Source: a phage. From it: DNA of 64,000 bases. Under the pieces are notes generated by a model, which worked only from the letters and a program-made list of their open reading frames with translations, searched no databases and was not told where the DNA came from. This document shows positions 39,608 to 58,564 of this stretch, one piece after another. How positions within the stretch are numbered: the stretch's first letter is position 1; each line of letters opens with the position of its first letter. The stretch lies in NCBI GenBank assembly GCA_012813795.1, contig GCA_012813795.1_4087.1. One strand, given 5' to 3'. The translations under genes and the position numbers were made by a program.

Positions 39608-39817
39608 TTAATCATTACTTACTGCAATGATAATCTGCGTATCCGCGTAGTCCTGCCAGACTTCACCGCCAGCCTTTGCCCTGGTTAGTCGTGCTGTCAT
39701 CTGCTTAATAGTCTTAGGCTTTAGTGGAACCTGTTGCAGTACTGTACGCATAGCATCATCGACGTTATAGTGTACGCCTGCAATAGTACCTAGAACGCTG
39801 TATACTGTATAGTTCAT
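39608..39817 (-). CDS. hypothetical protein
   Basis: 69-aa minus ORF. Confidence 0.55.
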   Translation of the reverse strand: MNYTVYSVLGTIAGVHYNVDDAMRTVLQQVPLKPKTIKQMTARLTRAKAGGEVWQDYADTQIIIAVSND

Positions 39818-39885
39818 GTGTATGTACTCCTGATATAGTTAAGGCCGCTAGAGAGCGGCCTATGATGTTTGGTGATGTGTAACGC

Positions 39886-40287
39886 TTACAACCCTAAGAT
39901 AGTACGGGCTTCGTTACGCTCCTTAGTCTGCTGCATGATGTAAGCGAGCAAGTCCTTACTAATGTATCCCGTGCCCATAGCTTCACGGATGGATACATCA
40001 TAAGCACCGAACCCCGTGCGAACGATACGCACATCATTCAGGTTAGTGTTATAGATACCGCCGAGGTCAACGGCTTCAAATACTGCATCAACAGTATATT
40101 CATTGTTACCATCATTGAAGTTTTCCAGTTCAATAGTATTGTTAGTTGCCCAACGTTTACAGCTTCCAATGATGCGGCAATATTCAGGGTGCATGTGACC
40201 ATTGTTTACAGCATACTCCATGCCAGCTTTACCAAAAGTCCGAGCCAGTACTAAAACGTCAGCGTAGGAAGTGATTGAGAAAGTCAT
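39886..40287 (-). CDS. hypothetical protein
   Basis: Track ORF 39886..40350 trimmed to ATG at 40287 (MTFSITSYADV...) preceded by AAGGAG SD; the extension translates the promoter/hairpin module. Confidence 0.65.
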   Translation of the reverse strand: MTFSITSYADVLVLARTFGKAGMEYAVNNGHMHPEYCRIIGSCKRWATNNTIELENFNDGNNEYTVDAVFEAVDLGGIYNTNLNDVRIVRTGFGAYDVSIREAMGTGYISKDLLAYIMQQTKERNEARTILGL

Positions 40288-40341
40288 GGTAGTACTCCTT
40301 AAGTTAGGAGGGAGAACCATTTCCCCCTCTCTATGTAAAAC

Positions 40342-40369
40342 ATTATACACTTTACTAAGTACTATGCAA
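40342..40369 (-). promoter_or_regulatory. sigma70-like early promoter (module copy)
   Basis: Minus strand TTGCAT-N16-TATAAT, then GGGGG..CCCC 5'-UTR hairpin, then SD. Confidence 0.55.
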
Positions 40370-40376
40370 GTACTTT

Positions 40377-40709
40377 TTACATTTTAATACCTGGATTCAG
40401 GTAGCGGTGAGATCCATATTCTGGATCGGTTTCGGTCCAGTACTGTAAATCGATAGTACCTTTAGCGTTAATCTTGTCTACCAGCTTATTCATCTTAGCG
40501 TATACTACGTCCGCATCGATGCGTTTAAAGCCAGTAGCTTTAGTGTAGTAGTAGTGATTTGCTTCGCTATCATTGAGGATATACCGAGCACCGTTTGCAG
40601 TTTGTGCGATAATGATTGAGTATTCTACTTCCCGATCCAGCCCGTCAATGAATACAGATGAAACATTGGTACGGATGAAAGCGTTTACGATAGCGATTGA
40701 AGTACTCAT
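40377..40709 (-). CDS. hypothetical protein
   Basis: Track ORF trimmed to ATG at 40709 (MSTSIAIVNAF...) with AGGAG SD. Confidence 0.6.
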   Translation of the reverse strand: MSTSIAIVNAFIRTNVSSVFIDGLDREVEYSIIIAQTANGARYILNDSEANHYYYTKATGFKRIDADVVYAKMNKLVDKINAKGTIDLQYWTETDPEYGSHRYLNPGIKM

Positions 40710-40860
40710 TTGTGAATCTCCTAACTTTGTGGGCCGTCGCACCATTGCCGCCCTACGAGATACATTATTGCAGTACTGCTATACTTTGTCAATAGTTTTT
40801 TATTAATAGTTTTCCACTCCACCAGCAGATAGTTACTCACCGTTATTAACTATATATTTT

Positions 40861-40950
40861 AGATACACCTATGCACCCTGTGGGCTAGTTTTTGTCTATG
40901 CGTATATAATAGCAAAGGGACTGACCGGAGTCAATCCCTTTTTTTATTCT
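40861..40950. repeat. conserved inter-gene boundary element, copy 1
   Basis: ~90-bp unit: GATACAC..GCACCC-N3-GGGC box, TATATAAT, then GGGACTGAC-cgga-GTCAATCCC hairpin and T-run; near-identical copies at 43931, 47245, 49700. Confidence 0.6.
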
Positions 40951-40956
40951 TTTTTG

Positions 40957-41157
40957 TTAGATGATCTTCCAATCTTCCACGATCATTGTAAGATACCGAA
41001 CCATCGATTCGAGTGATTCGAATTCACGATAATCTGTCGCCCCACCAGCGGTACAAGTACAACCGATTAAGCCATTTTGCAATTCCTTAATCTGTACATC
41101 GATAAGGTTAGCTTTAGCTTCTTTCAGTACTTCAACCAGTGCGATAGCGATAGACAT
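40957..41157 (-). CDS. hypothetical protein
   Basis: 66-aa minus ORF with promoter module upstream. Confidence 0.6.
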   Translation of the reverse strand: MSIAIALVEVLKEAKANLIDVQIKELQNGLIGCTCTAGGATDYREFESLESMVRYLTMIVEDWKII

Positions 41158-41246
41158 AATGTTTTACTCCAAACTATTGGCGGGAGAACTATTCCCCCGC
41201 TCTATGTAAAACATTATACACTATAGGATAGTACTGTCAAATAGTT

Positions 41247-41504
41247 TTATGAGATATCCTCGATATAGTCGGCCCATTTCATTTTTTCAGTACTGTCAAT
41301 GGCTACCGGATTATTTGGATCAAACCATTCACCATTACCGCAATACATCCCCACGGCAACGGTTTTATATCCATCCTGGGCCGTATTCCAGGCAAGGCCA
41401 CGATAGATACGGCCTTTAACTGGTTGCAGTACTGGTAACGTTTTATGGTCTTCTACGTAGGCCATAGCTTGAGGATTTACCCGATATTGTGTGAATTGTT
41501 CCAT
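41247..41504 (-). CDS. hypothetical protein (paralog of 41585..41851)
   Basis: 85 aa; shares V.P..G..Y....W.....Y....G.W.DP..P pattern with neighbour. Confidence 0.6.
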   Translation of the reverse strand: MEQFTQYRVNPQAMAYVEDHKTLPVLQPVKGRIYRGLAWNTAQDGYKTVAVGMYCGNGEWFDPNNPVAIDSTEKMKWADYIEDIS

Positions 41505-41584
41505 GATGTTTCCCCTTTTAATATTGGGGGAGTATTCCCCCTATGCAAAACATTATACACTATCAGTTAGTACTGTCAATACTA

Positions 41585-41851
41585 TCAATTAAATTTAGGA
41601 TGTATTTCAATGTAGTCACAATAAGGAAAATATTCAATATAACGCGTAGTGATTGGATGTAACGGATCGGACCATACACCGCTACCCTCATAGCGTGCTA
41701 GTGGGCCTTTTAAGTACTTTTGTTGTTTCCTTGACCAGTATATGGATTGATAGACTACACCAACGGCAGGGACAACGAGCGGGAGCATAGAGTGATCTAA
41801 TACAACGGATTGATAATTTTTATTATAGCGATATGTTGTTTTCTTTTTCAT
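41585..41851 (-). CDS. hypothetical protein (paralog of 41247..41504)
   Basis: 88-aa minus ORF. Confidence 0.6.
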   Translation of the reverse strand: MKKKTTYRYNKNYQSVVLDHSMLPLVVPAVGVVYQSIYWSRKQQKYLKGPLARYEGSGVWSDPLHPITTRYIEYFPYCDYIEIHPKFN

Positions 41852-41903
41852 TGTTAACCTATTATAGAAATTATTAAGGGGATATTATCATCCCCTTTTA
41901 TTG

Positions 41904-42128
41904 TTATACTAGATTATTTAATCCTCTTATGGTTGATGCTTTTTCTTCTTTCTCCCATTGACGGTAATACTTCCATGCTTCGTGATAGGTGGCGATCAGT
42001 TCATCTTTTTGATCCTGATTACATGCCAGTACTGAATCACGGAAAGCGGTGTTATAGATAGAATCGAATGATTTCTTTTCTGCCGCCAGGTTAGATACTT
42101 CCCGAATCAGTTCATCATGATTAGCCAT
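41904..42128 (-). CDS. hypothetical protein
   Basis: Track ORF trimmed to ATG at 42128 (MANHDELIREV...). Confidence 0.6.
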   Translation of the reverse strand: MANHDELIREVSNLAAEKKSFDSIYNTAFRDSVLACNQDQKDELIATYHEAWKYYRQWEKEEKASTIRGLNNLV

Positions 42129-42196
42129 CGTAGTACTCCTTATTAGTGGGGGAGGATATCTCCCCCTATGCAAAACATTATACTTTGTTTTACTTA

Positions 42197-42460
42197 CTAT
42201 GCAAGTACTTTTTTCATATAAACATTAAATTCTACACCGCCGTAACCTTCTACGATGATATGTTTTGCGTTATCACGCTTGCACATAGTGAAACCGTTGT
42301 TGATATGTTCTGCATTTTCCAGGGATACATCACCGATAGCGGCACATACGGCACTTATAACAGTATTCCGCAAAGTACTGGTATCGTTAGCGGTCATAGT
42401 AGTTTGCAGTACTACGTTGTCGTATACGTGTGCATTGATAGTGATTTCAATAGCGTTCAT
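42197..42460 (-). CDS. hypothetical protein
   Basis: Track ORF trimmed to ATG at 42460 (MNAIEITINAH...); discarded MFYIERGKWFPL is translated promoter/hairpin. Confidence 0.6.
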   Translation of the reverse strand: MNAIEITINAHVYDNVVLQTTMTANDTSTLRNTVISAVCAAIGDVSLENAEHINNGFTMCKRDNAKHIIVEGYGGVEFNVYMKKVLA

Positions 42461-42547
42461 GGTGTATCTCCTGGACTTGAGGGGAAACCATTTCCCCCTC
42501 TCGATATAAAACATTATACGTTGATCTAACTACAATGCAAGTACTTT

Positions 42548-42739
42548 TTAAATTTTATTTCCGATATAGTCCGGCCTATTCTTTTCGGTCATACGCTTTG
42601 CTAATGTTTGCATATGGCTTATCGCGTTTAAGGTGTCTTCCTCCAGGGATGAATCAACATAATCAGGATCATTCTTCACCTTACAATGATTATGATAGCG
42701 TAGTACTGCCAGTACTTTTTTAACTTCTTCAACTGTCAT
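42548..42739 (-). CDS. hypothetical protein
   Basis: 63 aa; ATGA start/stop overlap with the upstream gene (translational coupling). Confidence 0.55.
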   Translation of the reverse strand: MTVEEVKKVLAVLRYHNHCKVKNDPDYVDSSLEEDTLNAISHMQTLAKRMTEKNRPDYIGNKI

Positions 42740-43008
42740 AATAAGTATTCCACTTCGTTAGCTTTCAGGTTAGTATCAATCATCAGTGGATTTTTGTAGT
42801 TCACAAAACGATTAGTTTTCTCGATAGCGAATCCCATATAATCCAGCTTACTAACAGTACATTCATTCTTAAAAACTTCTTTCGCTGCATCGATGGCTGA
42901 TTGCATGGATAACCGACCATCTAAATTAATGTTTCCAAATGATCCACCAGCAGAAGTAGGATTACCGTTCATATCTTTAATGATCATAGTAGCGGAGTAG
43001 CTAGACAT
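42736..43008 (-). CDS. hypothetical protein
   Basis: 90-aa minus ORF with promoter module upstream. Confidence 0.6.
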   Translation of the reverse strand: MSSYSATMIIKDMNGNPTSAGGSFGNINLDGRLSMQSAIDAAKEVFKNECTVSKLDYMGFAIEKTNRFVNYKNPLMIDTNLKANEVEYLL

Positions 43009-43061
43009 AATTTTGTTTCCTTTTAGTATCGGGGAGAACTATTCTCCCCTTGATGTAAACT

Positions 43062-43089
43062 ATTATACAGTACTGATATACTTTGTCAA
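43062..43089 (-). promoter_or_regulatory. sigma70-like early promoter (module copy)
   Basis: Minus strand TTGACA-N16-TATAAT; 5'-UTR hairpin GGGGAGAA..TTCTCCCC; module duplicated ~exactly at 43504-43586. Confidence 0.6.
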
Positions 43090-43095
43090 ATACTT

Positions 43096-43503
43096 TTATT
43101 CGCCCATATAGATTAGATTATCATCGCCTACATAGGGATCGCAAACGTTGATTTCTTCGCAGTACTTAGTGAATACATCGTCATAGTGACCGATATCACG
43201 ATCCCAAAAGCCAGTGCCGTGACCTTCGCGAGTAAGAAAGAGATCATGACCTGCATGATTATAAGTATAATCAGGATTATGGTGTTTTTGTACTGTTTCC
43301 ATATCTTCACCATGTACAGCAAGGAAACGTGAACATGCAATCACTGCCGCTTGATGGGCTTGCTCTGATAATTCATAATCTTCCAGGTAATCGCCGTTCT
43401 CATTGTATACAGTACTGAATTGCATAGCTTCAATGTAACCAGCGACCATTGCAGCATGATTTTTATCGTTGGTGATGTTCCGAGCTTGATTAGTAGTAGT
43501 CAT
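43096..43503 (-). CDS. hypothetical protein
   Basis: 135-aa minus ORF. Confidence 0.6.
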   Translation of the reverse strand: MTTTNQARNITNDKNHAAMVAGYIEAMQFSTVYNENGDYLEDYELSEQAHQAAVIACSRFLAVHGEDMETVQKHHNPDYTYNHAGHDLFLTREGHGTGFWDRDIGHYDDVFTKYCEEINVCDPYVGDDNLIYMGE

Positions 43504-43555
43504 GTTTTTATTCCTTTTAGTATCGGGGAGAACTATTCTCCCCTTGATGTAAACT

Positions 43556-43583
43556 ATTATACAGTACTGATATACTTTGTCAA
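43556..43583 (-). promoter_or_regulatory. sigma70-like early promoter (module copy)
   Basis: Minus strand TTGACA-N16-TATAAT; duplicate of the 43062 module. Confidence 0.6.
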
Positions 43584-43586
43584 TAC

Positions 43587-43808
43587 TTAATTACGTTTAA
43601 AATGATATGTGCCTTTATCATCCTGAACGCCCCATACTGATTTACCATCAACACCAGTGAAGCCGGATTGTAATTCAATATGGAAACCATTATTATCAAC
43701 TACAAAAACTTTTTTATTTTCATCCCGATAACATTGATATTCTGAATCAACATTAAAGGCCGCATCATTCAGAAGATTGGAAGCGTAAATGCAAGTCATT
43801 GTAGTCAT
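43587..43808 (-). CDS. hypothetical protein
   Basis: Track ORF trimmed to ATG at 43808 (MTTMTCIYASN...) with AAGGA SD. Confidence 0.6.
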   Translation of the reverse strand: MTTMTCIYASNLLNDAAFNVDSEYQCYRDENKKVFVVDNNGFHIELQSGFTGVDGKSVWGVQDDKGTYHFKRN

Positions 43809-43930
43809 GATTTTATTCCTTATTGCCAGGGAGAACCGTTTCCCCCTCTCGATATAAAACATTATACTTGATTCTAAGTACAATGCAAGTACTTTTTAAA
43901 AATAGTTTTCAGTACTCAATCATTATACAA

Positions 43931-44020
43931 TAGATACACTCCCGCACCCTATGGGTCAGTGAGCTATCTCTCAATGAATATATAATAGCAAAGGGACTGA
44001 CCGGAGTCAATCCCTTTTTT
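43931..44020. repeat. conserved inter-gene boundary element, copy 2
   Basis: Same unit as 40861..40950, directly 3' of the kinase-like gene. Confidence 0.6.
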
Positions 44021-44028
44021 AATCTTTT

Positions 44029-44613
44029 TTATCGTGTTATAGTTACGGCTTTTACGTCGCGTTGTTTATAGTACTGATTCCAAATATTGCGGGTTAAACC
44101 GTAATCAAGTACTTTAATCAGGCCATTGCGATCCTCGCCTATGTTCTGCTTTCTGATATCTCTTATCGTTAGTGTTGATAAGGTATCATCAACGTGTTGT
44201 AGTGCATCAGCGAAATGGTGTTGGCGTTCAATAGTGTTACGTTTAACATTGTACTTTAATTCATTGCAAGCGTTAACGTGCTTTACACTGCCTTTGCTTG
44301 CAGTACTCAAACGATCCATAACAATAAACATATTATCAGGATCGCTTAAATGCATATGCACTTTCGCAAAGAACTGTTTCAACCGAGGACGGTCATAATC
44401 TAAAAAATTCCATACCTTACATTCTGTTTCATTTTGTTCTACGCCAGCATCACAATTCGCGACCTTAATCACTAACCGATCATTTAAAGCGAATACGATA
44501 CGGGATGATCCGGCCCCGATGATTTCAAGTCCAGCCAACCGACAAACTGTAAGGATCTCTTTGTTAGTTTCCATTTCTGCCAGTGCCCGGATGAATTTAG
44601 TATAGTTACGCAT
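44029..44613 (-). CDS. protein kinase-like protein (T7 gp0.7-type Ser/Thr kinase fold suspected)
   Basis: 194 aa; glycine-rich loop IGAGSSRIVF, conserved lysine context LVIKVA, catalytic-loop-like DIRKQNIG, DFG-like VLDYG; AAGGAG SD. Confidence 0.55.
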   Translation of the reverse strand: MRNYTKFIRALAEMETNKEILTVCRLAGLEIIGAGSSRIVFALNDRLVIKVANCDAGVEQNETECKVWNFLDYDRPRLKQFFAKVHMHLSDPDNMFIVMDRLSTASKGSVKHVNACNELKYNVKRNTIERQHHFADALQHVDDTLSTLTIRDIRKQNIGEDRNGLIKVLDYGLTRNIWNQYYKQRDVKAVTITR

Positions 44614-44664
44614 TGCATTTACTCCTTAAGATAGCAGGGAGGTATTCCCTGCCTTGATGTGACT

Positions 44665-44693
44665 ATTATATGTTAGTACTAATTAGATTGCAA
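44665..44693 (-). promoter_or_regulatory. sigma70-like promoter of the kinase-like gene
   Basis: Minus strand TTGCAA-N17-TATAAT. Confidence 0.55.
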
Positions 44694-44910
44694 CAGTTTT
44701 ATTTGCAATTACTGAATGAATTGCGGTTTTACCTGATTTAGTACTGAATACATTAGCACGACCATTTTCAATAGTGATGCGGTATTCACCTTTACTATCA
44801 ATGAGGTTGATAAATTCAGGAGTACTAAACCGAGTTACTTTAAAAGTCAGTACATTGAGCAGGTCCACCAGCGTAGTAGTTTCTTTGATGCGTTCTAAGA
44901 TATTAATCAT
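44683..44910 (-). CDS. hypothetical protein
   Basis: 75-aa minus ORF. Confidence 0.55.
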   Translation of the reverse strand: MINILERIKETTTLVDLLNVLTFKVTRFSTPEFINLIDSKGEYRITIENGRANVFSTKSGKTAIHSVIANKTVAI

Positions 44911-44975
44911 TTTGTTTCTCCAGTTATTCCGTGTTGGTATAGATACATAGTACTAAAACATTTGAGTACTGTCAA

Positions 44976-45194
44976 TTAGATAATTGCATATTTCTTTAAA
45001 GATAATGCGTCTTGTGTTGGCTGATACTCCACGCCGTTACCGTTATCTACTTTAACTAATAAACCTTTGTCAATTAGTTTTTTAATAGTCCGTTGGCCTT
45101 GTTGAAAATTGGTAAAGTGTGAATCATTACGAAAGGTGTAACCATGTTGGATAGCTACATCAATAGTTTTCTTTTCGACTTTAGATAAATTCAT
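44976..45194 (-). CDS. hypothetical protein, possible small DNA-binding protein
   Basis: 72 aa; basic, ...RTIKKLIDKGLLVKV... reminiscent of a winged-helix recognition helix (weak). Confidence 0.45.
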   Translation of the reverse strand: MNLSKVEKKTIDVAIQHGYTFRNDSHFTNFQQGQRTIKKLIDKGLLVKVDNGNGVEYQPTQDALSLKKYAII

Positions 45195-45248
45195 TTTGTT
45201 ACTCCCCGTGTTGGTATGTACATATAGTACTAAAACATTTGAGTACTG

Positions 45249-45503
45249 TCAACGTGATATTAGTTTTATTTTCTTATTATATTGTTGGTGTTCATAGAGG
45301 TTCATCTTTCCGGTATTCTCGATTACTATCCTGTTGTTAGTGTCCACATCGATTACACGCAGTTTTCCGTTGCTTAACTTCCTCGGTAATAGATTACCAT
45401 TAATAAACTCATTAGCGAGCGTGACGGCCTTTGTGATGATTCTCTGAGGGGCTTTATAGTGTACCCGCAAGATATTATCTTTAGATAGTTGTACCTTAAT
45501 CAT
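45249..45503 (-). CDS. hypothetical protein
   Basis: 84-aa minus ORF. Confidence 0.55.
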   Translation of the reverse strand: MIKVQLSKDNILRVHYKAPQRIITKAVTLANEFINGNLLPRKLSNGKLRVIDVDTNNRIVIENTGKMNLYEHQQYNKKIKLISR

Positions 45504-45516
45504 TTTAGTTTATCCT

Positions 45517-45543
45517 ATAAAAAAGGCGGGAACTGATCCCGCC
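45517..45543 (-). terminator. rho-independent terminator
   Basis: GGCGGGA-actga-TCCCGCC hairpin followed on the minus strand by UUUUUUAU; downstream of 45566..45970. Confidence 0.65.
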
Positions 45544-45565
45544 GTGTTGTTAGTACTGCAAGTTA

Positions 45566-45970
45566 TTAGATAACCTGGCGGCGTTTACTGAATACTGTTA
45601 CACGATTACCCTTACGATCATGTCGGATCTCTTTCTGGTTGCGAACCAGTTCACTTGGACGCTTGAGGTTTGCCAGGTGATCCGCGTGAGTCCAAGCGGT
45701 ATGGTTTGCCTGTACTTTGATATCAGAACCAGCGATAAACTCATCTTGTGCGTCAAGTATTGCCGCCAGCATATCCGCTCGTTTTAGTTCTGCTGCTGTC
45801 AGTACTGGTTCAGGTGAATTCACAATATCAGAGATTTCTTTGAACTGTACGGCCCAGCGTTGGCCTTTCGGTGCTGTCGTTCCCATGTCTTTAAATGCTG
45901 CTCCTTCCTCGCGTGCAACAATACGGGCAGCTTCACGGGTAGCGTAGAATTTAGTAATCATGGTATACAT
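45566..45970 (-). CDS. hypothetical protein (paralog of 56881..57147)
   Basis: 134 aa; shares FxTREqAR..A...GA.FKDMG and IKHDRKGNRVTV with 56881..57147. Confidence 0.6.
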   Translation of the reverse strand: MYTMITKFYATREAARIVAREEGAAFKDMGTTAPKGQRWAVQFKEISDIVNSPEPVLTAAELKRADMLAAILDAQDEFIAGSDIKVQANHTAWTHADHLANLKRPSELVRNQKEIRHDRKGNRVTVFSKRRQVI

Positions 45971-46056
45971 CCTATTAGTTAAGTTAGTACTACAAGTTAG
46001 AGTCTATTATAAAGTACTATCTGGGCAATGTCAAATAGTACTTTAAATGGATTCTA

Positions 46057-46380
46057 TTACATGTCTTTCTTACGTTTTACATCGTTGTAGCGAACTGTTA
46101 TTTCTTTGTTGATCTCTTTTTCTATTTGATGAATAACTTTTTCTTTCGGGTTGAAACCTATAACGGTTTCTTTAATGATCTCCAAGCCTGTGTATTCGCC
46201 TTGTGTGCCGTAACCGTAAGTAAAGGTTTCATGTCCTAAATCCTCCCAGCGATCACCAATCAAAGCAGACACGTAGCAAGAGTGGTAAGTATTGCCGTGT
46301 GAATCAGTCCACCGATTAACATTAATGTCAAAGGAAGTAATAATTTTCAGTTCTACTTTCTGGGTGAGGATCATAGCCAT
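46057..46380 (-). CDS. hypothetical protein (paralog of 51661..51984)
   Basis: Track ORF trimmed to internal Met (MAMILTQKVEL); shares RWTDSxGNTYHSC.VS...FTYGY...NVKRKKD with 51661..51984. Confidence 0.6.
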   Translation of the reverse strand: MAMILTQKVELKIITSFDINVNRWTDSHGNTYHSCYVSALIGDRWEDLGHETFTYGYGTQGEYTGLEIIKETVIGFNPKEKVIHQIEKEINKEITVRYNDVKRKKDM

Positions 46381-51660: not shown

Positions 51661-51984
51661 TTAAAGATCTTTTTTGCGTTTAACATTCTGTACAGTACAA
51701 TGCAACGGGATAGACAAATCATTACACAAACGATAGAGGGAGGTTTCAACAGTATCAAGCCCGTCTACTGATTCCTTTAAGAGATCTAACGCCGTTTGTT
51801 GATATGCATCTTCATAGCCATAAGTAAATGATTCAACCGCCAGATCATTCACACCGTTATCCAGTTCAACGCTTACATGACAAGAATGATAAGTATTGCC
51901 ATATGAATCAGTCCAACGTTTACCGTCAACATTGATTGCACGGATTGCAGCCAGGGAAACGGTGTTAATGATAGTTTTAGCCAT
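51661..51984 (-). CDS. hypothetical protein (paralog of 46057..46380)
   Basis: 107 aa. Confidence 0.6.
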   Translation of the reverse strand: MAKTIINTVSLAAIRAINVDGKRWTDSYGNTYHSCHVSVELDNGVNDLAVESFTYGYEDAYQQTALDLLKESVDGLDTVETSLYRLCNDLSIPLHCTVQNVKRKKDL

Positions 51985-52075
51985 TTTAGTATTCCTTAAA
52001 TTAATATGCGTTGTCTTGATAAAATCTATTATGCCAGTACTATCAAACTATGTCAATAGTACTGTGATAATATTT

Positions 52076-52288
52076 TTACTTACTTTCTTTAGCTGCTTTA
52101 TGTGCTTCCACTGCCATAACCACATCAGCACGAACAAAGTTAGCAACCGTATCAGTGTAATATTTGATTGCATCGTCAACTTCTGCGAACGTCCGATACA
52201 TACCACACCAAGATACTTTATAACCTGCTTTCACTTGTTCCAGCTTAACCAGTGATTTGTTTACTTTGATTTTAGTAATGATAGCCAT
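52076..52288 (-). CDS. hypothetical protein
   Basis: 70-aa minus ORF. Confidence 0.55.
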   Translation of the reverse strand: MAIITKIKVNKSLVKLEQVKAGYKVSWCGMYRTFAEVDDAIKYYTDTVANFVRADVVMAVEAHKAAKESK

Positions 52289-52370
52289 TTTTTGTTTCCT
52301 CTTAGTTGTCTTGATAAAATCTATTATGCCAGTACTATCAAACTATGTCAATAGTACTGTGATAATATTT

Positions 52371-52514
52371 TTACTTACTTTTTGCTTTCTTTGATGCTTC
52401 AACCTGGTCAGCCCACTCTTTACCCCATACTTGAGCATTATAGTGATACTGACAAAGAGCAACGCCCCGCTTTAAACCAGTAATAGATTTTTTACCACAT
52501 TGACAAGTTTTCAT
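52371..52514 (-). CDS. small Cys-containing protein (47 aa), not in ORF track
   Basis: Hand-translated MKTCQCGKKSITGLKRGVALCQYHYNAQVWGKEWADQVEASKKAKSK; GAGGAA SD; promoter module upstream. Confidence 0.45.
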   Translation of the reverse strand: MKTCQCGKKSITGLKRGVALCQYHYNAQVWGKEWADQVEASKKAKSK

Positions 52515-52600
52515 TTTTCGTTTCCTCTTAGTGGGGAGAATCATTTCTCCCCTTGATGTAATGTATTATACTTTATCCGATTTACTTTGCAAGTACTTTT

Positions 52601-52828
52601 TTAATTTAATTCATCTAGGCAAAGGATACGATCTACACCTAAATCAGTTAAGCTAATAGACGGCACTTGATAGGTTTCAATGTATGCTACATCGGCCCAC
52701 TGACCGAACTCACCTGCCGCCCAGTTATACATTGCAAAATGTAATTCCGCACCTTTCTTATTAGTAATTACAGCAACAGTAGAAGAATTGCCAGTAGTAC
52801 CAGTTACGCGAGTGATTACGATAGCCAT
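52601..52828 (-). CDS. hypothetical protein
   Basis: 75-aa minus ORF. Confidence 0.55.
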   Translation of the reverse strand: MAIVITRVTGTTGNSSTVAVITNKKGAELHFAMYNWAAGEFGQWADVAYIETYQVPSISLTDLGVDRILCLDELN

Positions 52829-52898
52829 TGTTTTGATTCCTATTCAGTAGTTGATGTATGTATTATGTCAGTACTTAAAACTATTGTCAAACTATTTT

Positions 52899-53051
52899 TT
52901 AAAGTTTATCAATGATTGATGCCGTTTCATTGATAGTCTTGCCGTGTTTTGCACACGCGATAACTGCTTTAAATTCCTTTGATGACCAATCTTTTTTCCT
53001 GCATACTGACATTACTTGTAAAGTGAAACAATCCAGTTCATAAGTATTCAT
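52899..53051 (-). CDS. small protein (50 aa), not in ORF track
   Basis: Hand-translated MNTYELDCFTLQVMSVCRKKDWSSKEFKAVIACAKHGKTINETASIIDKL; GAGGA SD; promoter TTGCAC-N16-TATAAT. Confidence 0.45.
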   Translation of the reverse strand: MNTYELDCFTLQVMSVCRKKDWSSKEFKAVIACAKHGKTINETASIIDKL

Positions 53052-53220
53052 CTTTATATCCTCAGTTAGTTAAGGTGTCTCGCCTTGATGTAATTAATTA
53101 TACGCTAATCTCTTAATCGTGCAAGTACTTTTTATTAGTTTTTATAAAATACTTTTAACGCTCTCAATCGCATTCTAACGGCCTTAACGCCACCAGCTAG
53201 GGCGATGTATCACATAAACG

Positions 53221-53254
53221 AAAAAAGCCCGTAGAATTGATTCTACGAGCTTTT
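53221..53254. terminator. bidirectional rho-independent terminator
   Basis: GCCCGTAGA..TCTACGAGC hairpin flanked by A6 and T4; 3' of the lipoprotein gene. Confidence 0.55.
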
Positions 53255-53270
53255 AAGCTGGTTGATTGTA

Positions 53271-53678
53271 TTACTTACAGTTATAGACTATGATCCCGAC
53301 CGTCCCGTGTCCAATGACTTCAACGTTATACACTAACTTGCCATTTACACGCTCGCGAGCATAAAAAACGCGTTCATTCTCGGCATCGCGATACGCTGAT
53401 AAAAATTTACGGTTTGGATACGCTTTCAGTACTGGCGACTCAGTGAAAAAGTCACCGATAACTACACTAAAATGATCCCCGTGTTCTGTTAATGGTATAC
53501 TACGCGGATCAGTAAATTGCGGACGGTTATCAATAACAAAATATGGATTCACTGTACAAATCTTATCGCCCATCTCTGAATAAGTTGGCTTAGGATCATT
53601 AGCCTGGATGGATGATTTAGGGGCCGTACATCCCACCGCCAACAGTACACAACTAATAACCGCAATTTTTTTAAACAT
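53271..53678 (-). CDS. lipoprotein (candidate superinfection-exclusion or receptor-blocking factor)
   Basis: 135 aa; signal peptide MFKKIAVISCVLLAVG|C with lipobox LLAVGC. Confidence 0.65.
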   Translation of the reverse strand: MFKKIAVISCVLLAVGCTAPKSSIQANDPKPTYSEMGDKICTVNPYFVIDNRPQFTDPRSIPLTEHGDHFSVVIGDFFTESPVLKAYPNRKFLSAYRDAENERVFYARERVNGKLVYNVEVIGHGTVGIIVYNCK

Positions 53679-53742
53679 AATGTTTACTCCTATAAAATTG
53701 TATTTAAAAGAAAATCCCCTAGCAATCAGGGGATTCGTTTGA

Positions 53743-54225
53743 TTATGCTACATCTTTACGGTGAGCTTCGATCCATTCCTCGCGAGTCATACCGCTGGCG
53801 TTAATCGCGTCCAGTACTACGGCAATGCAGTTACCGCGTACTGGTACAGTGTATTCCTCGCCATTATCCAGTACTACCGTGACACGTTCTTGAATCCATT
53901 TTTTAGCTTTTACTTCTGGCTTGTCTTCCCCGTATTTCGCTGCCAGGGCTTTACGGGCCATTTCGGTAACTACTTCCAGATCAAGCCCAGCGACGGCGGC
54001 GTTAATATCTTCAATCGTTTTCTGCAATTCTGCTTCGCGTGCTGCCTTCTCTGCTTCAATTGCCGCCGCTTTATTAGCTTGCAGTTCTTTCGCTTCGCTG
54101 TACGCAATGTTAAAATTGTTGCGTACTGCTTTCATGGTATCGCTATCCAGTTCAGCCAGGATCTCTGCCGCTACATTAGTTTCATTTGCTACCAGTGCTT
54201 TGATGAATGATTTTACGTTAGCCAT
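53743..54225 (-). CDS. hypothetical Ala/Glu-rich coiled-coil protein
   Basis: Track ORF begins at a TTG; ATG at 54225 (MANVKSFIKAL...) has GAGGAA SD; central AAAIEAEKAAREAELQK heptad-like region. Confidence 0.6.
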   Translation of the reverse strand: MANVKSFIKALVANETNVAAEILAELDSDTMKAVRNNFNIAYSEAKELQANKAAAIEAEKAAREAELQKTIEDINAAVAGLDLEVVTEMARKALAAKYGEDKPEVKAKKWIQERVTVVLDNGEEYTVPVRGNCIAVVLDAINASGMTREEWIEAHRKDVA

Positions 54226-54424
54226 TATGTAATTCCTCAATTAAAGTTTAGTTTACGTTAGATAGTGTATCAAAGTTTTCTCGACGTGTCCAGTTTTTCG
54301 TTCGACTTACTGGCGGTCTACTTAGTGCTCCCCGTCTTGATGTAATACATTCTACGCCTTTTTGTGGTAATGTCAACTACTTTTTTAAAACTATTTTCAA
54401 AGTATTCCAGTACTACGATACTAC

Positions 54425-54451
54425 AAAAACAAAAAAGCCCACCAGGTGGGC
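54425..54451 (-). terminator. rho-independent terminator
   Basis: GCCCACC-a-GGTGGGC hairpin followed on the minus strand by UUUUUUGUUUUUG; 3' of 54459..54689. Confidence 0.65.
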
Positions 54452-54458
54452 TATGTAC

Positions 54459-54689
54459 TTAATCAGTAAGTAAAATATTAAACACTTTGCCATTTAACGT
54501 TATTGGTGTACTGCTACCAGGCTTGAGATCAGTTAGTACACCTGCAATAGCTTTTTCATTGGCGACCTTTCCAGTGTCCAATAGTACTACAGTACTGATA
54601 AGATTAACGCTCGTTTCAATATCATAATGCACGGCGTTAAGGAGTTGTGTAGTACTTCCAGCGTTAAGTAAAACTATTCGCTTAGTCAT
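54459..54689 (-). CDS. hypothetical protein
   Basis: 76-aa minus ORF. Confidence 0.55.
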   Translation of the reverse strand: MTKRIVLLNAGSTTQLLNAVHYDIETSVNLISTVVLLDTGKVANEKAIAGVLTDLKPGSSTPITLNGKVFNILLTD

Positions 54690-54767
54690 GGTATTACCCC
54701 TTATACCAGGGGAACCGTTCCCCCTATGTAAAACATTATACGCGTTTAAAAACTATTGTATAGTACT

Positions 54768-55004
54768 TTATGATTTTTTATAAAACATTTCAGCAGTGAT
54801 ATTTTTACCCGTTGGTTGTACTTTATCCAGAATTTTTTGATGTCCAGGGCGACCAAATGAATAAGATCCGTAAACCGTAAACCAGTAGTTACCCTCAGTG
54901 TTTACATGTACAGCACAATAGGGAACGCCCCGCGATTCATCACTAGTAAAGTGTGCTACCGTTCCCGTTACATTCGAAGACGTTGATTTGATTTGTTCGA
55001 CCAT
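54768..55004 (-). CDS. hypothetical protein (paralog of 56154..56387)
   Basis: 78 aa; shares GVPYCAVHVNT.G.YW.TVYG.YSF.RP.H.KIL with 56154..56387. Confidence 0.6.
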   Translation of the reverse strand: MVEQIKSTSSNVTGTVAHFTSDESRGVPYCAVHVNTEGNYWFTVYGSYSFGRPGHQKILDKVQPTGKNITAEMFYKKS

Positions 55005-55112
55005 TTTCTTATTCCTTAGTTACCAGGGGAACCGCTCCCCCTATGCAAAACATTATACGCGTTTAAAAACTAATAGCAAGTATTTTAATAAAAAGTATTT
55101 GGAAAATAATTG

Positions 55113-55255
55113 TTGACAAGTGCATCCAGTACTGGCATAATTACTACATCAAGACGAAACAGTCACTAACCCACCGGGTGCCGAGATCCGTCTATTAAAT
55201 GATTCAGTACTGAAAAAGTAACGGGGAGTTATTATCTCCCCGCGTTGTTATTTTG
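55113..55255 (+). ncRNA. candidate plus-strand small RNA (box-containing)
   Basis: Only plus-strand unit with promoter-like TTGACA-N17-CATAAT (55113-55141); no ORF; contains conserved CCCACCGGGTGC box; ends at GGGGAG..CTCCCC hairpin (55223-55241). Confidence 0.35.
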
Positions 55256-55469
55256 TAAGGTATAAACAGAAGTCACCTTTATTTGCTACGCCGCCAGTGT
55301 AACGCGATGAATAGTTAGTAACGTCCTGGACTTCTGCTATTACCAGTGTATCATCATTCAATTCGTCGCAGAAGCAAACGGCTGGATCTTTTACGCCGAT
55401 ATTGTCGGCATGTTCCCGCATAGATTTAACCAGTGCTTCAAGTTGGGAAAGGGTAGTAATGTTAGCCAT
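55248..55469 (-). CDS. hypothetical protein
   Basis: Track ORF trimmed to MANITTLSQLE... Confidence 0.55.
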   Translation of the reverse strand: MANITTLSQLEALVKSMREHADNIGVKDPAVCFCDELNDDTLVIAEVQDVTNYSSRYTGGVANKGDFCLYLTK

Positions 55470-55555
55470 TGTATTTTCCTCATTACCAGGGAGAACCATT
55501 TCTCCCCTTGATGTAAACTATTATACAGTACTAAAAACTAATTGCAAGTACTTTT

Positions 55556-55759
55556 TTAATTTAATTGCTTTAACACATAATCATAAACACCACGCACATC
55601 ATTGATCATCGCCTCACGGTTAGCAGGTAACGCAGAAGGATCGCCACTATCCCAGGCATTGATAAAACTCCCCAAATCATGATAGATTTTATTTTGTAAG
55701 CCGATCAACTGTAATTCTTTTTCTTCAAGCTCTTTGATACGGTCGATTAAATCACTCAT
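55556..55759 (-). CDS. hypothetical protein
   Basis: 67 aa; SD GAGGATTATCTA shared with the upstream gene. Confidence 0.55.
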   Translation of the reverse strand: MSDLIDRIKELEEKELQLIGLQNKIYHDLGSFINAWDSGDPSALPANREAMINDVRGVYDYVLKQLN

Positions 55760-55776
55760 TAGATAATCCTCAGTAC

Positions 55777-56064
55777 TTAATTGTAAGATCCGCAGCGGTT
55801 GCAGTAGTTCCCGTCTTCCTCGTCATCGTCAACGAATTGACCGACGAAATGATCTACTTTCTCTTTGAGGCTTTTATAATCCTCTTCTACTTCCTTTAAA
55901 CGTTTCTGGTAGTATTCCAGGGCTTGCACATACGCCGCCTCAGCAGTTTTCTCCCGCATAGCTAAATTCATGCCGCGTGTTTCATCATAAAGCCAATAAC
56001 CATCGGTGCACTGGCTGATAGAAAATGATTTGGTTAACACTTTATAGTCAATTACTTTGCTCAT
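55777..56064 (-). CDS. hypothetical protein with C-terminal Cys pair
   Basis: 95 aa; acidic stretch then ...YCNRCGSYN. Confidence 0.55.
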   Translation of the reverse strand: MSKVIDYKVLTKSFSISQCTDGYWLYDETRGMNLAMREKTAEAAYVQALEYYQKRLKEVEEDYKSLKEKVDHFVGQFVDDDEEDGNYCNRCGSYN

Positions 56065-56153
56065 TAGATAATCCTCTGTAAATGCAGGGGAACCATTTCC
56101 CCCGCCTCGATATAAAGTATTATACTCGTTTAAACTTAGTATGCAAGTACTTT

Positions 56154-56387
56154 TTAGTGCTTAGTAAAATATTTTTCTGCGGTGATATCCTTTCCGGTAG
56201 GCTTCACTACTTCCAGGATCTTACTATGTGCCGGACGAGCAAACGAATACCCCCCGTATACAGTTAACCAATAGTCACCGTCAGTGTTTACGTGTACAGC
56301 ACAATAGGGTACACCTTTATCAGTATCAGCGATGGAATGTACTTTCGTTCCGGTCCGGCTTGTAGTCGTTTGAATTTGTTCGATCAT
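56154..56387 (-). CDS. hypothetical protein (paralog of 54768..55004)
   Basis: 77-aa minus ORF. Confidence 0.6.
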   Translation of the reverse strand: MIEQIQTTTSRTGTKVHSIADTDKGVPYCAVHVNTDGDYWLTVYGGYSFARPAHSKILEVVKPTGKDITAEKYFTKH

Positions 56388-56444
56388 GATGCTTACTCCT
56401 GGTTATAGGCGGGAACCACTCCCGCCATTGATTCAGTACTGAAA

Positions 56445-56675
56445 TTACATTCCAACCATTGCCGCACGAATTGCAGTAGTGCTATACTTAAAGCCGTCCG
56501 GCGTTGACTGACCGCGTAAAGTATCCATCATTAGCCGGGCGGCGGCATCGCGGTTATTTGTCTCATTGATGCAATCCAGGGCGTGACGATACAACCAGCT
56601 ATCATTGTTAATCCAAAGGCTTACATTCCAATGAGTTTTGTTTTTGTGACCTAAGAACATTTTTGATTTAGCCAT
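56445..56675 (-). CDS. hypothetical protein (paralog of 57230..57469)
   Basis: 76 aa; shares GHKNKT.WNVSLWINND..LYR and PDGFKYSTTAIRAAMVGM with 57230..57469. Confidence 0.6.
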   Translation of the reverse strand: MAKSKMFLGHKNKTHWNVSLWINNDSWLYRHALDCINETNNRDAAARLMMDTLRGQSTPDGFKYSTTAIRAAMVGM

Positions 56676-56880
56676 TTTGAAAATCCTCGTTTGATTTGAG
56701 CGGGGAACTATTCCCCGTCCTGATGTAAAACATTATACGCCTTTAAACATAGTTTGCAAGTACTTTTTAAAAATAGTTTTAATCACTTTCCTATAGATAC
56801 ACTCCCGCACCCTATGGGCTATCGCCTTGTATCCGGCTTGTAAGTATTATCTCACTAAGCCGGATAATGGTCAAGTACTT

Positions 56881-57147
56881 TTATTCAAGTACTGCAATCT
56901 TTTTAGTACGGTACACAGTAACACGGTTGCCCTTGCGGTCGTGCTTTATTTCTACCACTCGACGCGATACACTATCAGGACTTTTTAACGCCGATAACCA
57001 GTACTGTAACGATCTGGCGGTGCTACGCTTTACAATGACCCAACGTTCACCCCTGGCTGATTGTACGCCCATATCTTTAAACGTTGCACCGTCAACCTTT
57101 GCCGCTTGCCGAGCTTGTTCACGCGTTTCAAAGTATATAATATTCAT
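56881..57147 (-). CDS. hypothetical protein (paralog of 45566..45970)
   Basis: Track ORF trimmed to MNIIYFETREQARQ... Confidence 0.6.
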   Translation of the reverse strand: MNIIYFETREQARQAAKVDGATFKDMGVQSARGERWVIVKRSTARSLQYWLSALKSPDSVSRRVVEIKHDRKGNRVTVYRTKKIAVLE

Positions 57148-57229
57148 GCTGATACCCCATCGTTGATGTATGAATAAAATCCTATTATAAAGTACTATCA
57201 CCGTGCAATAGTACTTTAAATCTATTCTC

Positions 57230-57469
57230 TTACATTCCAACCATCGCGGCACGGATCGCCGTAGTGCTATACTTGAATCCGTCTGGAGTTTTATCTTGTC
57301 CAGTTTGCTCTAAAAATAGCATCATATGACGGGCCGCATCATTACGATTAGTATTAGCGTCGATAAATTCTTTCGCCAGACGATACAATGACTCATCGTT
57401 ATTAATCCAAAGGCTTACATTCCACTGAGTTTTGTTTTTGTGACCGTTGAAAGTTTTAGTAGTAGCCAT
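57230..57469 (-). CDS. hypothetical protein (paralog of 56445..56675)
   Basis: 79-aa minus ORF. Confidence 0.6.
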   Translation of the reverse strand: MATTKTFNGHKNKTQWNVSLWINNDESLYRLAKEFIDANTNRNDAARHMMLFLEQTGQDKTPDGFKYSTTAIRAAMVGM

Positions 57470-57554
57470 AATTAAAAATCCTCTTAATTATAGTGGGGAA
57501 CTATTCCCCACCTGATAGAAAGTATTATACGCCTTTAAACTTAGTTTGCAAGTA

Positions 57555-57788
57555 CTATTTTTTCAGTACTGGTAAACCTTTGATCTCACCTGGCTGTACT
57601 TCCTCAAAGGTCGCCGCCATCATACGGCTATCATCTTCCTTGCACTCTTCCATTGCATCACAAAAATGATTAATAACGTCCGGTGCAACGTCAACCACAT
57701 CAAACAAGCCAACCTCAGTGCAACGGCTTAAAGCGTTTAACAGGTCAGTCAGTGCAACGGATTGAGAAACAGTTAAGATAGTACTCAT
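57555..57788 (-). CDS. hypothetical protein
   Basis: 77-aa minus ORF. Confidence 0.55.
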   Translation of the reverse strand: MSTILTVSQSVALTDLLNALSRCTEVGLFDVVDVAPDVINHFCDAMEECKEDDSRMMAATFEEVQPGEIKGLPVLKK

Positions 57789-57882
57789 AAAATTAATCTC
57801 TTAATTATAGTGGGGAACTATTCCCCACCTGATAGAAAGTATTATACGCCTTTAAACTTAGTATGCAAGTACTTTTTAAAAC

Positions 57883-58245
57883 TTATTCGTAAATCTTGCC
57901 ACTGTCAGCCCATACCAGGAAACGCGGCATATTATCCCATGCATCTTGTTTCAAGTTTAAGCCGTGCAATACTTCTGTACTTTCCATCCCTGGTACTGGT
58001 TTACTATACACCGCAAACATTTCGCCCATGTACTGATACGCCATCGTTAAATCACTGGCGATCATCTTATGGATCATCGCATCAAGCATCACAGTAGCGG
58101 CGTATTGTTCACGCTTAAGCGGCAACATTGCAATCAATTCCCGATAAGCTGAAATATGAATCTTTACAGTCTCAGCCGGAAGATCTTTCATCTCTTCGCG
58201 AAAGTTAACCAGGTTAGCAATGATTTTAGTGATTTGAGTCGCCAT
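57883..58245 (-). CDS. hypothetical protein
   Basis: 120-aa minus ORF; last gene before the non-coding hub. Confidence 0.6.
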   Translation of the reverse strand: MATQITKIIANLVNFREEMKDLPAETVKIHISAYRELIAMLPLKREQYAATVMLDAMIHKMIASDLTMAYQYMGEMFAVYSKPVPGMESTEVLHGLNLKQDAWDNMPRFLVWADSGKIYE

Positions 58246-58564
58246 CGTTTTAATTCCTATTAAAGTGAGTTAGGAGCGTTTCCCCCGTCTCGATGTAAAA
58301 CATTATACGCCGTTAAACATAGTATGCAAATACTTTCTGCAAATACTTTTAAAATAGTTTTCTTTCTATATAGGAGTACTATCATTCAGTACTGAATCAA
58401 TCCAGGGAGTACAATTATTCAGTACTATACCCTCAAAACGTCCTCAGTCGCTTTCTAACGCATTAATACACCTAAGCTATACATTTGCACCACTCCCAAC
58501 AATCCAGGGCTTTACGGGCCGTTTAAACGCGTTAAATTATTTTCAATTATTTTGTTTTTAGCTA

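Follow-up and report, generated by a model that had tools for sequence, protein, structure and literature searches.

Promoter modules of the terminal-repeat field

The phage contig GCA_012813795.1_4087.1, of which a stretch of 64,000 nucleotides (nt) was analysed (hereafter the window), carries about 50 small minus-strand genes between 39457 and 60041, and most of these are preceded by a copy of a short module made up of a sigma-70-type promoter, in most copies a hairpin, a Shine-Dalgarno sequence (SD) and a start codon. Megablast assigned the window to the Rak2-like jumbo coliphages and, among these, to the 121Q/PBECO4 group (Asteriusvirus). Its best matches (JP4, ELP-22, CRJP21, A4, WPEC5 and 121Q, hereafter the relatives) align at about 90% identity but cover only 28-70% of positions 38000-60500, and this region is therefore a mosaic. 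The best of them spans 70% of the region at ~90% identity, and 77% of the stretch that corresponds to the direct terminal repeat (DTR) of the relatives. In phage vB_Ec-M-J, 'Direct Terminal Repeats' are annotated at 1-21525, and the two ends of this annotation map to ~39456 and ~60041 in the window (~20.6 kilobases, kb). In addition, the JP4 record (PQ330092.1 136149-162785) holds the terminal-repeat block twice, in tandem and mid-record, with a period of 20,114 base pairs (bp). From the mapped ends and the doubled block we therefore identified 39457-60041 as a DTR-equivalent early field. The tandem in JP4 suggests a permuted or concatemer-style assembly and not ends placed at the true termini. 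The whole early field lies in the terminal repeat, a location that is relevant to genome-entry order and early expression.

In the window, the promoter pattern TTGACA-N15-19-TATAAT was found 11 times against 0.40 expected from shuffled sequences (largest shuffle 2), and ten of these matches lie on the minus strand between 41213 and 59559. A repeat search yielded a 23-copy family, and a hidden Markov model (HMM) seeded with it was run with nhmmer at a threshold of E<1e-3. It retrieved 31 copies on the minus strand (40281-59573) and a single one on the plus strand (58778-58827); 1-40000 contained none. Motif discovery, which the initial annotation had proposed as a check, thus bore out its claim of repeated minus-strand modules; the field was also rightly recognised, except that it does not end at 58330, as stated there (39800-58330), and runs on to 59573. 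Every copy falls within the DTR-equivalent span, to which the modules are confined. The 31 copies (type A), eleven promoters lacking a hairpin and four terminator/promoter composites (type B) add up to about 46 promoter units. A module of their own was found for about 40 of the 50 predicted genes, that is for most of them, and not for nearly every early gene as had been proposed. The relatives carry 21-34 modules each. The features are as follows, (-) denoting the minus strand.

39457..60041: module field, equivalent of the relatives' DTR, with ~50 small minus-strand genes
59513..59573 (-): type A promoter TTGACA-16-TATAAT, leader long and atypical; the field's first promoter
58239..58345 (-): type A module, gene 58245..57883
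57781..57885 (-): type A module, gene 57788..57555, a polymorphic cassette absent in JP4
57462..57563 (-): type A module, gene 57469..57230; 90% identity to the neighbouring module
56669..56776 (-): type A module, gene 56675..56445
56061..56163 (-): type A module, gene 56064..55777
55464..55563 (-): type A module; start 55469 (73 amino acids, aa; stop 55248) or alternative upstream ATG 55499
54999..55090 (-): type A module, gene 55004..54768
54683..54774 (-): type A module, gene 54689..54459; extra 316-bp cassette at this module in relatives
54329..54393 (-): type A-like promoter TTGACA-16-TAGAAT, weak hairpin, no adjacent start codon
53042..53138 (-): type A-like module with degenerate hairpin, gene 53051..52899
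52506..52608 (-): type A module; start 52514 (47 aa, stop 52371) or alternative upstream ATG 52544; module and gene 84% identical in rV5-like A5-4
50711..50813 (-): type A module, gene 50719..50477 (polymorphic cassette)
50388..50489 (-): type A module, gene 50394..50248 (polymorphic cassette)
50161..50256 (-): type A module, gene 50165..50013
49569..49673 (-): type A module, gene 49577..49218; long-ORF artefact LAYNVLHREG from 49640
48226..48325 (-): type A module, gene 48232..48044
47960..48051 (-): type A module; start 47957 (70 aa, stop 47745) or alternative upstream ATG 47987
47652..47751 (-): type A module, gene 47657..47484
47139..47208 (-): type A promoter with long-loop hairpin, no adjacent start codon; hairpin-less promoter 47075-47048 next
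46646..46741 (-): type A module, gene 46651..46469, a polymorphic cassette absent in JP4 and 121Q; GTG artefact start 46696
46374..46474 (-): type A module, gene 46380..46057; 95% identity to the neighbouring module; GTG artefact start 46425
44617..44693 (-): type A module with 17-nt spacer; nearest start 44618 (44-aa ORF) or gene 44613..44029 (194 aa)
43800..43905 (-): type A module, gene 43808..43587
43494..43593 (-): type A module, gene 43503..43096, a polymorphic cassette present in the window and A4, absent in five relatives
43006..43099 (-): type A module, gene 43008..42736; direct repeat with module 43494..43593 (97% over 79 nt)
42452..42557 (-): type A module, gene 42460..42197 (cassette absent in 121Q); artefact ORF MFYIERGK from 42514
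42121..42221 (-): type A module, gene 42128..41904
41500..41586 (-): type A module, gene 41504..41247
41151..41256 (-): type A module, gene 41157..40957
40281..40385 (-): type A module, gene 40320..39886
52862..52890 (-): hairpin-less type C promoter TTGACA-17-TGaCATAAT, short unstructured leader
52323..52351 (-): type C promoter, four-copy family
52028..52056 (-): type C promoter, four-copy family; flanks polymorphic cassette 52086-52305
49170..49198 (-): type C promoter, four-copy family
48878..48906 (-): type C promoter, four-copy family
48618..48645 (-): hairpin-less promoter TTGACT-16-TATAAT
47048..47075 (-): hairpin-less promoter, gene 47015..46740
46006..46034 (-): hairpin-less promoter, gene 45961..45566
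45224..45252 (-): hairpin-less promoter (TTGACAGTACT...TACTAT), gene 45194..44976, a cassette absent in ELP-22
44947..44975 (-): hairpin-less promoter, near-copy of 45224..45252, gene 44910..44683
40764..40792 (-): hairpin-less promoter, gene 40745..40377
49750..49785 (-): type B composite, 12-bp UNCG-loop hairpin and T-run (terminator), TTGACT in the 5' arm, TGcTATTAT 17 nt downstream
47291..47326 (-): type B terminator/promoter composite
43982..44017 (-): type B terminator/promoter composite
40906..40941 (-): type B terminator/promoter composite

Read from its upstream end, the type A consensus consists of an A-tract (often AAAAAGTAC), a -35 element (TTGCAA, TTGCAT or TTGACA), a 16-nt spacer, TATAAT and (G/A)TTTTACAT(A/C)(G/A)(A/G) with a conserved start region GTTTTACAT, followed by a hairpin of 7-9 bp (GGGGAGAA-loop-TTCTCCCC), 8-14 A-rich nt, an SD and an ATG that lies 45-57 nt past the -10. 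A hairpin of -10 to -17 kcal/mol begins 10-15 nt past the -10 in 28 of the 31 copies. An SD-preceded ATG stands at the consensus distance in 25 modules and an SD-preceded ATG was found in three more, the remaining three having no nearby start. The spacer, described initially as usually ending in CAGTACTG, does so in merely 10 of the 31 copies.

The modules form direct repeats of ~100 nt with 70-95% identity, spaced 230-1800 bp apart. Two pairs are nearly base-for-base duplicates, as had been noted: 43011-43089 and 43505-43583 share 97% identity over 79 nt, and 46374-46482 and 46645-46753 share 96% over 109 nt. A set of four copies (48825, 49117, 51975 and 52270), likewise reported as duplicated modules, is indeed repeated (71-85% identity over 112 nt) but contains no hairpin; these promoters at 48.9, 49.2, 52.0 and 52.3 kb and about seven others make up the eleven hairpin-less units, in which the leader is short and unstructured. 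Type B elements occupy four longer intergenic gaps. In these, a 12-bp hairpin with a UNCG loop and a T-run (AAAGGGATTGAC-TCCG-GTCAGTCCCTTT) carries TTGACT within its 5' arm, with TGcTATTAT 17 nt downstream, and type B is thus a true terminator/promoter composite in which the stem-loop overlaps the promoter.

The modules also explain a class of wrongly placed starts, since the longest open reading frames (ORFs) often open inside them. All three examples given in the initial annotation were upheld: the ORF beginning MFYIERGK starts at the ATG made by TATAATG (42514), that beginning VRGNGSPPNKEREIK at a GTG within the hairpin, so that two unrelated proteins (46696 and 46425) acquire an identical prefix, and that beginning LAYNVLHREG in the -10 region at 49640. 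Annotations of the relatives use the short, SD-preceded versions (324, 183 and 408 nt in A4, for example). As a rule for annotation, the start should be taken as the SD-preceded ATG 45-57 nt past the -10, and ORFs opening in TATAATG or in the hairpin should be disregarded.

The hairpin of the type A module

The hairpin was analysed in a pooled set of modules from the window and six relatives (197 copies, 119 distinct). At least six Watson-Crick pairs form in 103 of the 119 distinct modules, which contain 61 distinct hairpin sequences, and the modal start of the hairpin is 13-14 nt past the -10. The mean folding energy is -11.8 kcal/mol against -4.5 for shuffles. Folding of the sense strand is more stable than that of the antisense strand in 76 cases and less so in 37, internal G.U pairs outnumber A.C mismatches (39 vs 16), and stem position 4 has the composition GC 50, GU 22 and AU 28. 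A raw MAFFT alignment analysed with RNAalifold gave just a 5-bp stem, the arms being misaligned by variable loop lengths, and loop-anchored per-sequence and covariance-model analyses were used instead. In the covariance-model alignment (107 distinct rows), which is fitted to the model and so provides moderate and not overwhelming evidence, 91.1% of cells were paired in register, double-sided compensatory cells numbered 60 against 13.7 in shuffles (0/500), and the covariation score was 0.325, shuffles scoring 0.24 and slid controls 0.20. With the stem included in a covariance model, 27 of the 31 type A copies of the window were picked up. The hairpin is kept as a structure, at a fixed distance from the -10, in five phage lineages whose stem sequences differ.

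A terminator scan of the field found no type A hairpin followed by a T-run, while about 12 genuine T-run terminators were located there (type B and some eight other sites). The hairpin therefore lacks the features of an intrinsic terminator. Since, in addition, it lies past the predicted transcription start of its own module, we read it as an RNA element of the 5' untranslated region (UTR), most likely a 5'-proximal stabiliser or insulator. Such a role would be comparable to that of the 5'-terminal stem-loop in the 5' UTR of E. coli ompA, which Emory, Bouvet and Belasco are said to have described as stabilising in 1992. Both arrangements place a stable hairpin near the mRNA 5' end, which in the modules is a predicted one, followed by an accessible ribosome-binding site, with structure conserved over sequence; the conservation seen here is that of a sense-strand RNA, as the G.U excess, the strand bias and the compensatory cells indicate. 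The type A hairpin differs from ompA in being multi-copy and modular, and its stabilising function is a presumed one. No Rfam family matched it at E<=1 over 38000-64000. Four other roles were considered for the hairpin and rejected from its sequence: an RNase III site (the stems are too short), a T4 RegB GGAG target (some stems lack GGAG, which moreover is base-paired), an SD/anti-SD switch (the 3' arm lies too near the SD and is sequestered) and a CsrA site (there are no GGA loops).

The initial annotation had likened the modules to promoter early stem-loops (PeSLs), which were described in the T4-like phages RB49/phi1, PST and nt-1 (Arbiol et al. 2010, PMC2839356; Comeau et al. 2014, PMC4122927). 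In RB49/phi1 these consist of a sigma-70-like promoter with a GGGG...CCCC stem-loop, usually located between the -35 and -10 or over the -10, which reportedly acts as a terminator (PMC2839356). By analogy, the type A hairpin could be an attenuator or terminator that blocks upstream read-through, so that each gene uses its own promoter. The RB49/phi1 stem-loop has the same make-up and cut expression of downstream lacZ as strongly as rrnB T1 (PMC2839356), and insulation would be useful in the window, where the genes are packed without a terminator between the stop codon and the next promoter. We nevertheless consider this unlikely. Canonical T-run terminators occur elsewhere in the field, yet a T-run follows none of the type A hairpins, and a terminator downstream of its own predicted start would be self-defeating because it would abort its own transcript. 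Moreover, the position of the type A hairpin is fixed relative to the -10, which suggests a role linked to the 5' end, whereas in RB49 the stem-loop precedes the start and occupies the spacer or the -10 itself. A scan of the RB49 hyperplastic region with the same script found AAAAAGTTGTTGACA-GGGGATCACCGATCCCC-TATAAT; counted from the -10, the stem-loop there lies at -18..0 or at -10..+11. This layout, with a stem-loop overlapping the promoter, is seen in the window only in the four type B elements; their 12-bp stem and T-run argue for termination there, just as the absence of a T-run argues against it in type A.

Modules and the turnover of gene cassettes

Breakpoints were defined as the ends of chained BLAST alignments between the field and the six relatives. 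Modules make up 18.6% of the field, and 77 of the 122 chain ends fall inside them. When unique breakpoints are counted, 27 of 48 lie in type A modules against 8.9 expected (p<=5e-5), with five more in other promoter elements; synteny breaks, another check put forward initially, thus agreed with the proposal. Modules therefore coincide with the boundaries of gene gain, loss and replacement between relatives, and with direct-repeat signatures. In at least eight one-gene insertions or deletions, the alignments on the two sides share 55-107 nt of the cassette-free genome, which is what recombination between direct repeats would be expected to leave behind. One locus illustrates this well: the window and A4 have the order module, gene 43503..43096, module, and JP4 and 121Q have a single module whose left flank corresponds to the upstream copy of the window and whose right flank corresponds to the downstream copy. 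Adjacent module pairs around polymorphic cassettes were the most similar ones (0.95, 0.92, 0.90, 0.88, 0.80 and 0.70 vs ~0.72 for the other pairs; Mann-Whitney p=0.002). Identical modules precede unrelated genes. Of ten cassette proteins none had a Pfam match above threshold, and nine had no Pfam match (ORFans).

Taking these results together, we propose that each type A module forms an early expression unit complete in itself, which the sigma-70 RNA polymerase of the host would read and in which the A-tract would act in a UP-like manner. Transcription would probably begin at the A of CAT in the start region GTTTTACAT, and the first ~30 nt of the mRNA would fold as a G/C-clamped hairpin of 7-9 bp, followed by the A-rich linker, SD and ATG. 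The hairpin may protect the mRNA from decay that depends on the 5' end and keep the downstream ribosome site independent of context, so that any small gene placed behind a module would become expressed. Homologous recombination between modules, within one genome or between co-infecting genomes, would then delete, insert or swap cassettes of a module and its gene. We infer both the action of the hairpin on RNA and the movement of cassettes by recombination from these patterns, and consider the combination, that is expression units with a stabilising or insulating 5' hairpin that are shuffled through their own repeats, to be reasonably probable.

A number of observations weigh against this proposal. 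The covariation is moderate: arms slid by -1 to -3 still pair in 84.6-95.6% of cells against 91.1% in register, G-rich and C-rich arms pair promiscuously, and most changes are transitions that could reflect shared descent. That the hairpin is part of the transcript follows from the spacing rules of sigma-70, that is from a predicted start. This start leaves ~5 unpaired nt before the core stem, or 0-3 nt where outer pairs close the gap, which they do in some copies only, and pairing of the 5'-terminal nt with the stretch behind the hairpin was likewise seen in just some copies; classic 5' stabilisers, according to the ompA work of Belasco, reportedly tolerate about 2-4 unpaired nt, so that the predicted overhang lies beyond the protective optimum. 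Eleven hairpin-less modules drive similar genes, and the hairpin is therefore dispensable for expression. As for recombination, 16 of the 48 unique breakpoints lie outside any promoter element, most of them, by inspection, near gene ends or terminators, and breakpoints in intergenic modules are also expected if selection spares only intact gene units.

The last two points lead to another explanation, in which the modules are alike only through selection for strong early promoters and ribosome sites, turnover proceeds by illegitimate recombination, and breakpoints are positioned by selection for intact genes. Strong sigma-70 promoters do converge on one consensus, and the breakpoints outside promoter elements mostly lie, by inspection, near other gene boundaries or terminators. 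We think that this, too, is improbable. The likeness covers positions that are not part of the consensus (spacer, start region, hairpin and linker) and reaches 97% over 79 nt in front of unrelated genes, the flank overlaps of 55-107 nt are exactly of module length, and the most similar adjacent pairs are those that flank polymorphic cassettes. Selection for intact genes would not yield either overlaps of module length or this association with identity.

The least likely explanation, to which we give little credence, is that the inverted repeat acts as DNA and is either the operator at which a dimeric phage regulator turns off early promoters or the target of a recombination protein: a near-perfect palindrome just downstream of a promoter is in the classical position for a repressor, a second palindrome (AGTACT, below) is strongly enriched in and around these promoters, and Arbiol et al. 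speculated that GGGG...CCCC stem-loops might bind a recombination protein (PMC2839356), but the stems vary widely with pairing kept (61 distinct ones in Asteriusvirus, and unrelated ones in K64-1, A5-4 and nepoznato) where a sequence-specific protein site would conserve sequence and not complementarity, and the excess of G.U over A.C and the better folding of the sense strand point to sense RNA.

Known systems, other phages and other repeated elements

The comparison with PeSLs stands as a functional analogy of promoter, hairpin and SD at the boundaries of gene gain and loss; membership, and the T4-type genome that it implied, do not. The likenesses are a strong sigma-70-like promoter with an A/T-rich upstream region (here AAAAAGTAC), an adjacent stem-loop of a G-run and a C-run (GGGGAGAA...TTCTCCCC type, 28 of 31 copies), an SD and start codon that close the element on its 3' side, numerous direct copies within a hyperplastic, ORFan-rich region (here a 20-kb mosaic field), and indel or replacement boundaries of close relatives within the elements. 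Unlike in RB49, where the stem-loop precedes the transcription start and is a reported terminator, the type A hairpin lies 10-15 nt past the -10, in the predicted transcript, and has no T-run. Sequence homology is also lacking: the module HMM had no match in the RB49 hyperplastic region by nhmmer, and neither RB49 nor phi1 was among the matches listed (40 of 60 records) in a BLAST search with a single module. Because of the different stem-loop position and these two negative searches, type A modules are analogues of PeSLs and not members. In addition, the phage is Rak2-like and jumbo, not T4-type, and its field is a terminal-repeat region. The principle has already been described, in the PeSLs of T4-like phages; the layout and the phage lineages are different here.

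The early 'uber' promoters of T4 combine UP, -35, TGn and -10 elements (Hinton 2010, PMC2988021). Like the early promoters of T4 and T5, those of the field are very strong, host-type promoters for many small early host-takeover genes; they differ in having a 16-nt spacer, no canonical TGn in type A (the TG is one position off), a conserved start region (TTACAT), a 5'-UTR hairpin and one promoter per gene. The pre-early genes of T5 are located in its terminal repeat, a setting that the field shares. Lambdoid morons have their own promoter and terminator without a shared repeat, and integron cassettes lack a promoter and depend on an integrase that recognises folded attC sites. Both resemble the cassettes described here as small accessory genes that move as units between short conserved sequences, but no recombinase is implicated in the modules of the window, unlike in integrons.

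A BLAST search with a single module hit 711 places in 60 phage records. The HMM found 22 matches in K64-1 (Alcyoneusvirus, Klebsiella) and 16 in Erwinia phage Hallingskeid, in 28 kb. All three module classes are present in these two phages, the hairpin occupies the same position with an unrelated sequence (for example GGGAAUGAAUGAUUCAUUCCC and GGAGAUUCCAGAAUAAUGGAAUCUCC), and the spacer ending CAGTACTG is near-universal. In rV5-like A5-4 (Vequintavirinae) and in Phapecoctavirus nepoznato, each small gene is preceded by UP-TTGACA-N16/17-(TAAACT/TATAAT)-GTATTACAT-GC hairpin-SD-ATG, and these phages share genes with the window at 84-90% nucleotide identity (52015-52354, 52375-52678 with the module included, 55772-56093 and 57230-57472). 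We found no prior description of the modules in the literature on Asteriusvirus, Rak2, 121Q, rV5 or phAPEC8, and the papers on CBB, PA5oct and rV5 report predicted sigma-70 promoters only.

With these observations, and with quantitative evidence from breakpoints, modular shuffling at promoter/stem-loop units is extended beyond T4-like phages to jumbo phages and to two or more further families. They suggest that large virulent phages in general replace their early host-takeover and anti-defence ORFans in this way. More tentatively, the unit of promoter, TTACAT, hairpin and SD might be a 'plug-and-play' expression standard that large virulent phages of enterobacteria have in common although they belong to unrelated families (the jumbo Rak2-like phages, in three genera, the rV5-like Vequintavirinae and the phAPEC8-like Stephanstirmvirinae), and that allows exchange of early genes across families; it would amount to a recombinase-free cassette pool in which the hairpin serves as both 5' protector and crossover hotspot. 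This is a possibility about which we are rather doubtful. If it were true, co-infecting families could swap small early genes, probably directed against the host or its defences, by homologous recombination, in analogy to integrons. The ~46 strong and compact natural expression units, with and without a 5' hairpin, offer a natural experiment on hairpin function and a parts list for phage engineering.

The field contains further repeated elements. The palindrome AGTACT (extended, cAGTACTg) is the most frequent hexamer of the window, with 258 copies against ~19 expected from dinucleotide and 48 from trinucleotide composition, and is ~13-fold over-represented. It is densest in 39457-64000, and the DTR-equivalent holds 130 copies, which are enriched in intergenic DNA. 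Its register in promoters varies (-27, -17/-16 and -7, counted from the -10). Within 1-39456 it occurs inside genes in all three frames, with no copies in 26000-32000 or 36000-38000. Loci of Asteriusvirus, K64-1 and Hallingskeid have 4-6.6 copies per kb, an enrichment that is confined to the Rak2-like clade and is not seen in rV5-like and phAPEC8-like loci. It may be the binding site of a clade-specific dimeric DNA-binding protein, a candidate role that is a guess on our part. The core resembles the E. coli SlmA-binding site, GTGAGTACTCAC, with different flanks. A literature search on AGTACT and CAGTACTG found nothing relevant.

We also observed a multi-copy candidate for a small structured RNA, termed box RNA. 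Its core starts at 40884, 43955, 47269, 49723 and 56818 on the minus strand, and on the plus strand at 55170 (promoter 55113-55141, terminator 55222-55242), with a variant at 58620. The element lies behind a strong promoter, which can belong to any class and to either strand. Some ~7-12 nt further on comes a short hairpin whose stems covary (GCC/GGC, GAC/GUC, AGAC/GUCU, ACCAC/GUGGU and others) around purine-rich loops (AGAUAA, AGAACAA, GAGAAA), then an invariant core CCCACAGGGUGC, (A/G)CCCA(C/U)NGGGUGC, and finally UGUAUCUAU or CCGUCC. Of 31 distinct copies, 28 form this first hairpin with 3 bp or more, as do 59% of shuffles. Each Asteriusvirus terminal repeat contains 5-8 copies, and the element is also present in K64-1 and Hallingskeid. 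It could be a family of small RNAs or a promoter-proximal antitermination element of the nut/put kind. The Rfam search (E<=1, 38000-64000) gave no family for it, its only match being a sub-threshold CyaR/RyeE at 53221-53303 on the minus strand (37.7 bits vs gathering score 47, full model length). In this sequence the terminator hairpin is intact and the first hairpin broken, and it overlaps the 3' end of ORF 53678..53271 at a cassette boundary.

The first ~1.6 kb of the DTR-equivalent (58400-60041) has no convincing ORFs and dense AGTACT copies. It holds plus-strand promoter-like sites at 58565-58592, 58778-58827 and 58905-58933 together with the variant box RNA, and could house a genome terminus or regulatory RNAs. 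A search for tRNAs found none. Directly downstream of the field, at ~36500-39400, the relatives (L002 1-3813, L003 1-2897, L006 3952-8753) are annotated with ~20-30 tightly overlapping genes of ~70 aa, an array without intergenic promoters that is in sharp contrast to the field with its one promoter per gene. The largest gene of the field (44029-44613, minus strand, 194 aa) shows a weak, sub-threshold likeness to protein kinases (Pkinase 17.6 bits, cut-off 31.7).

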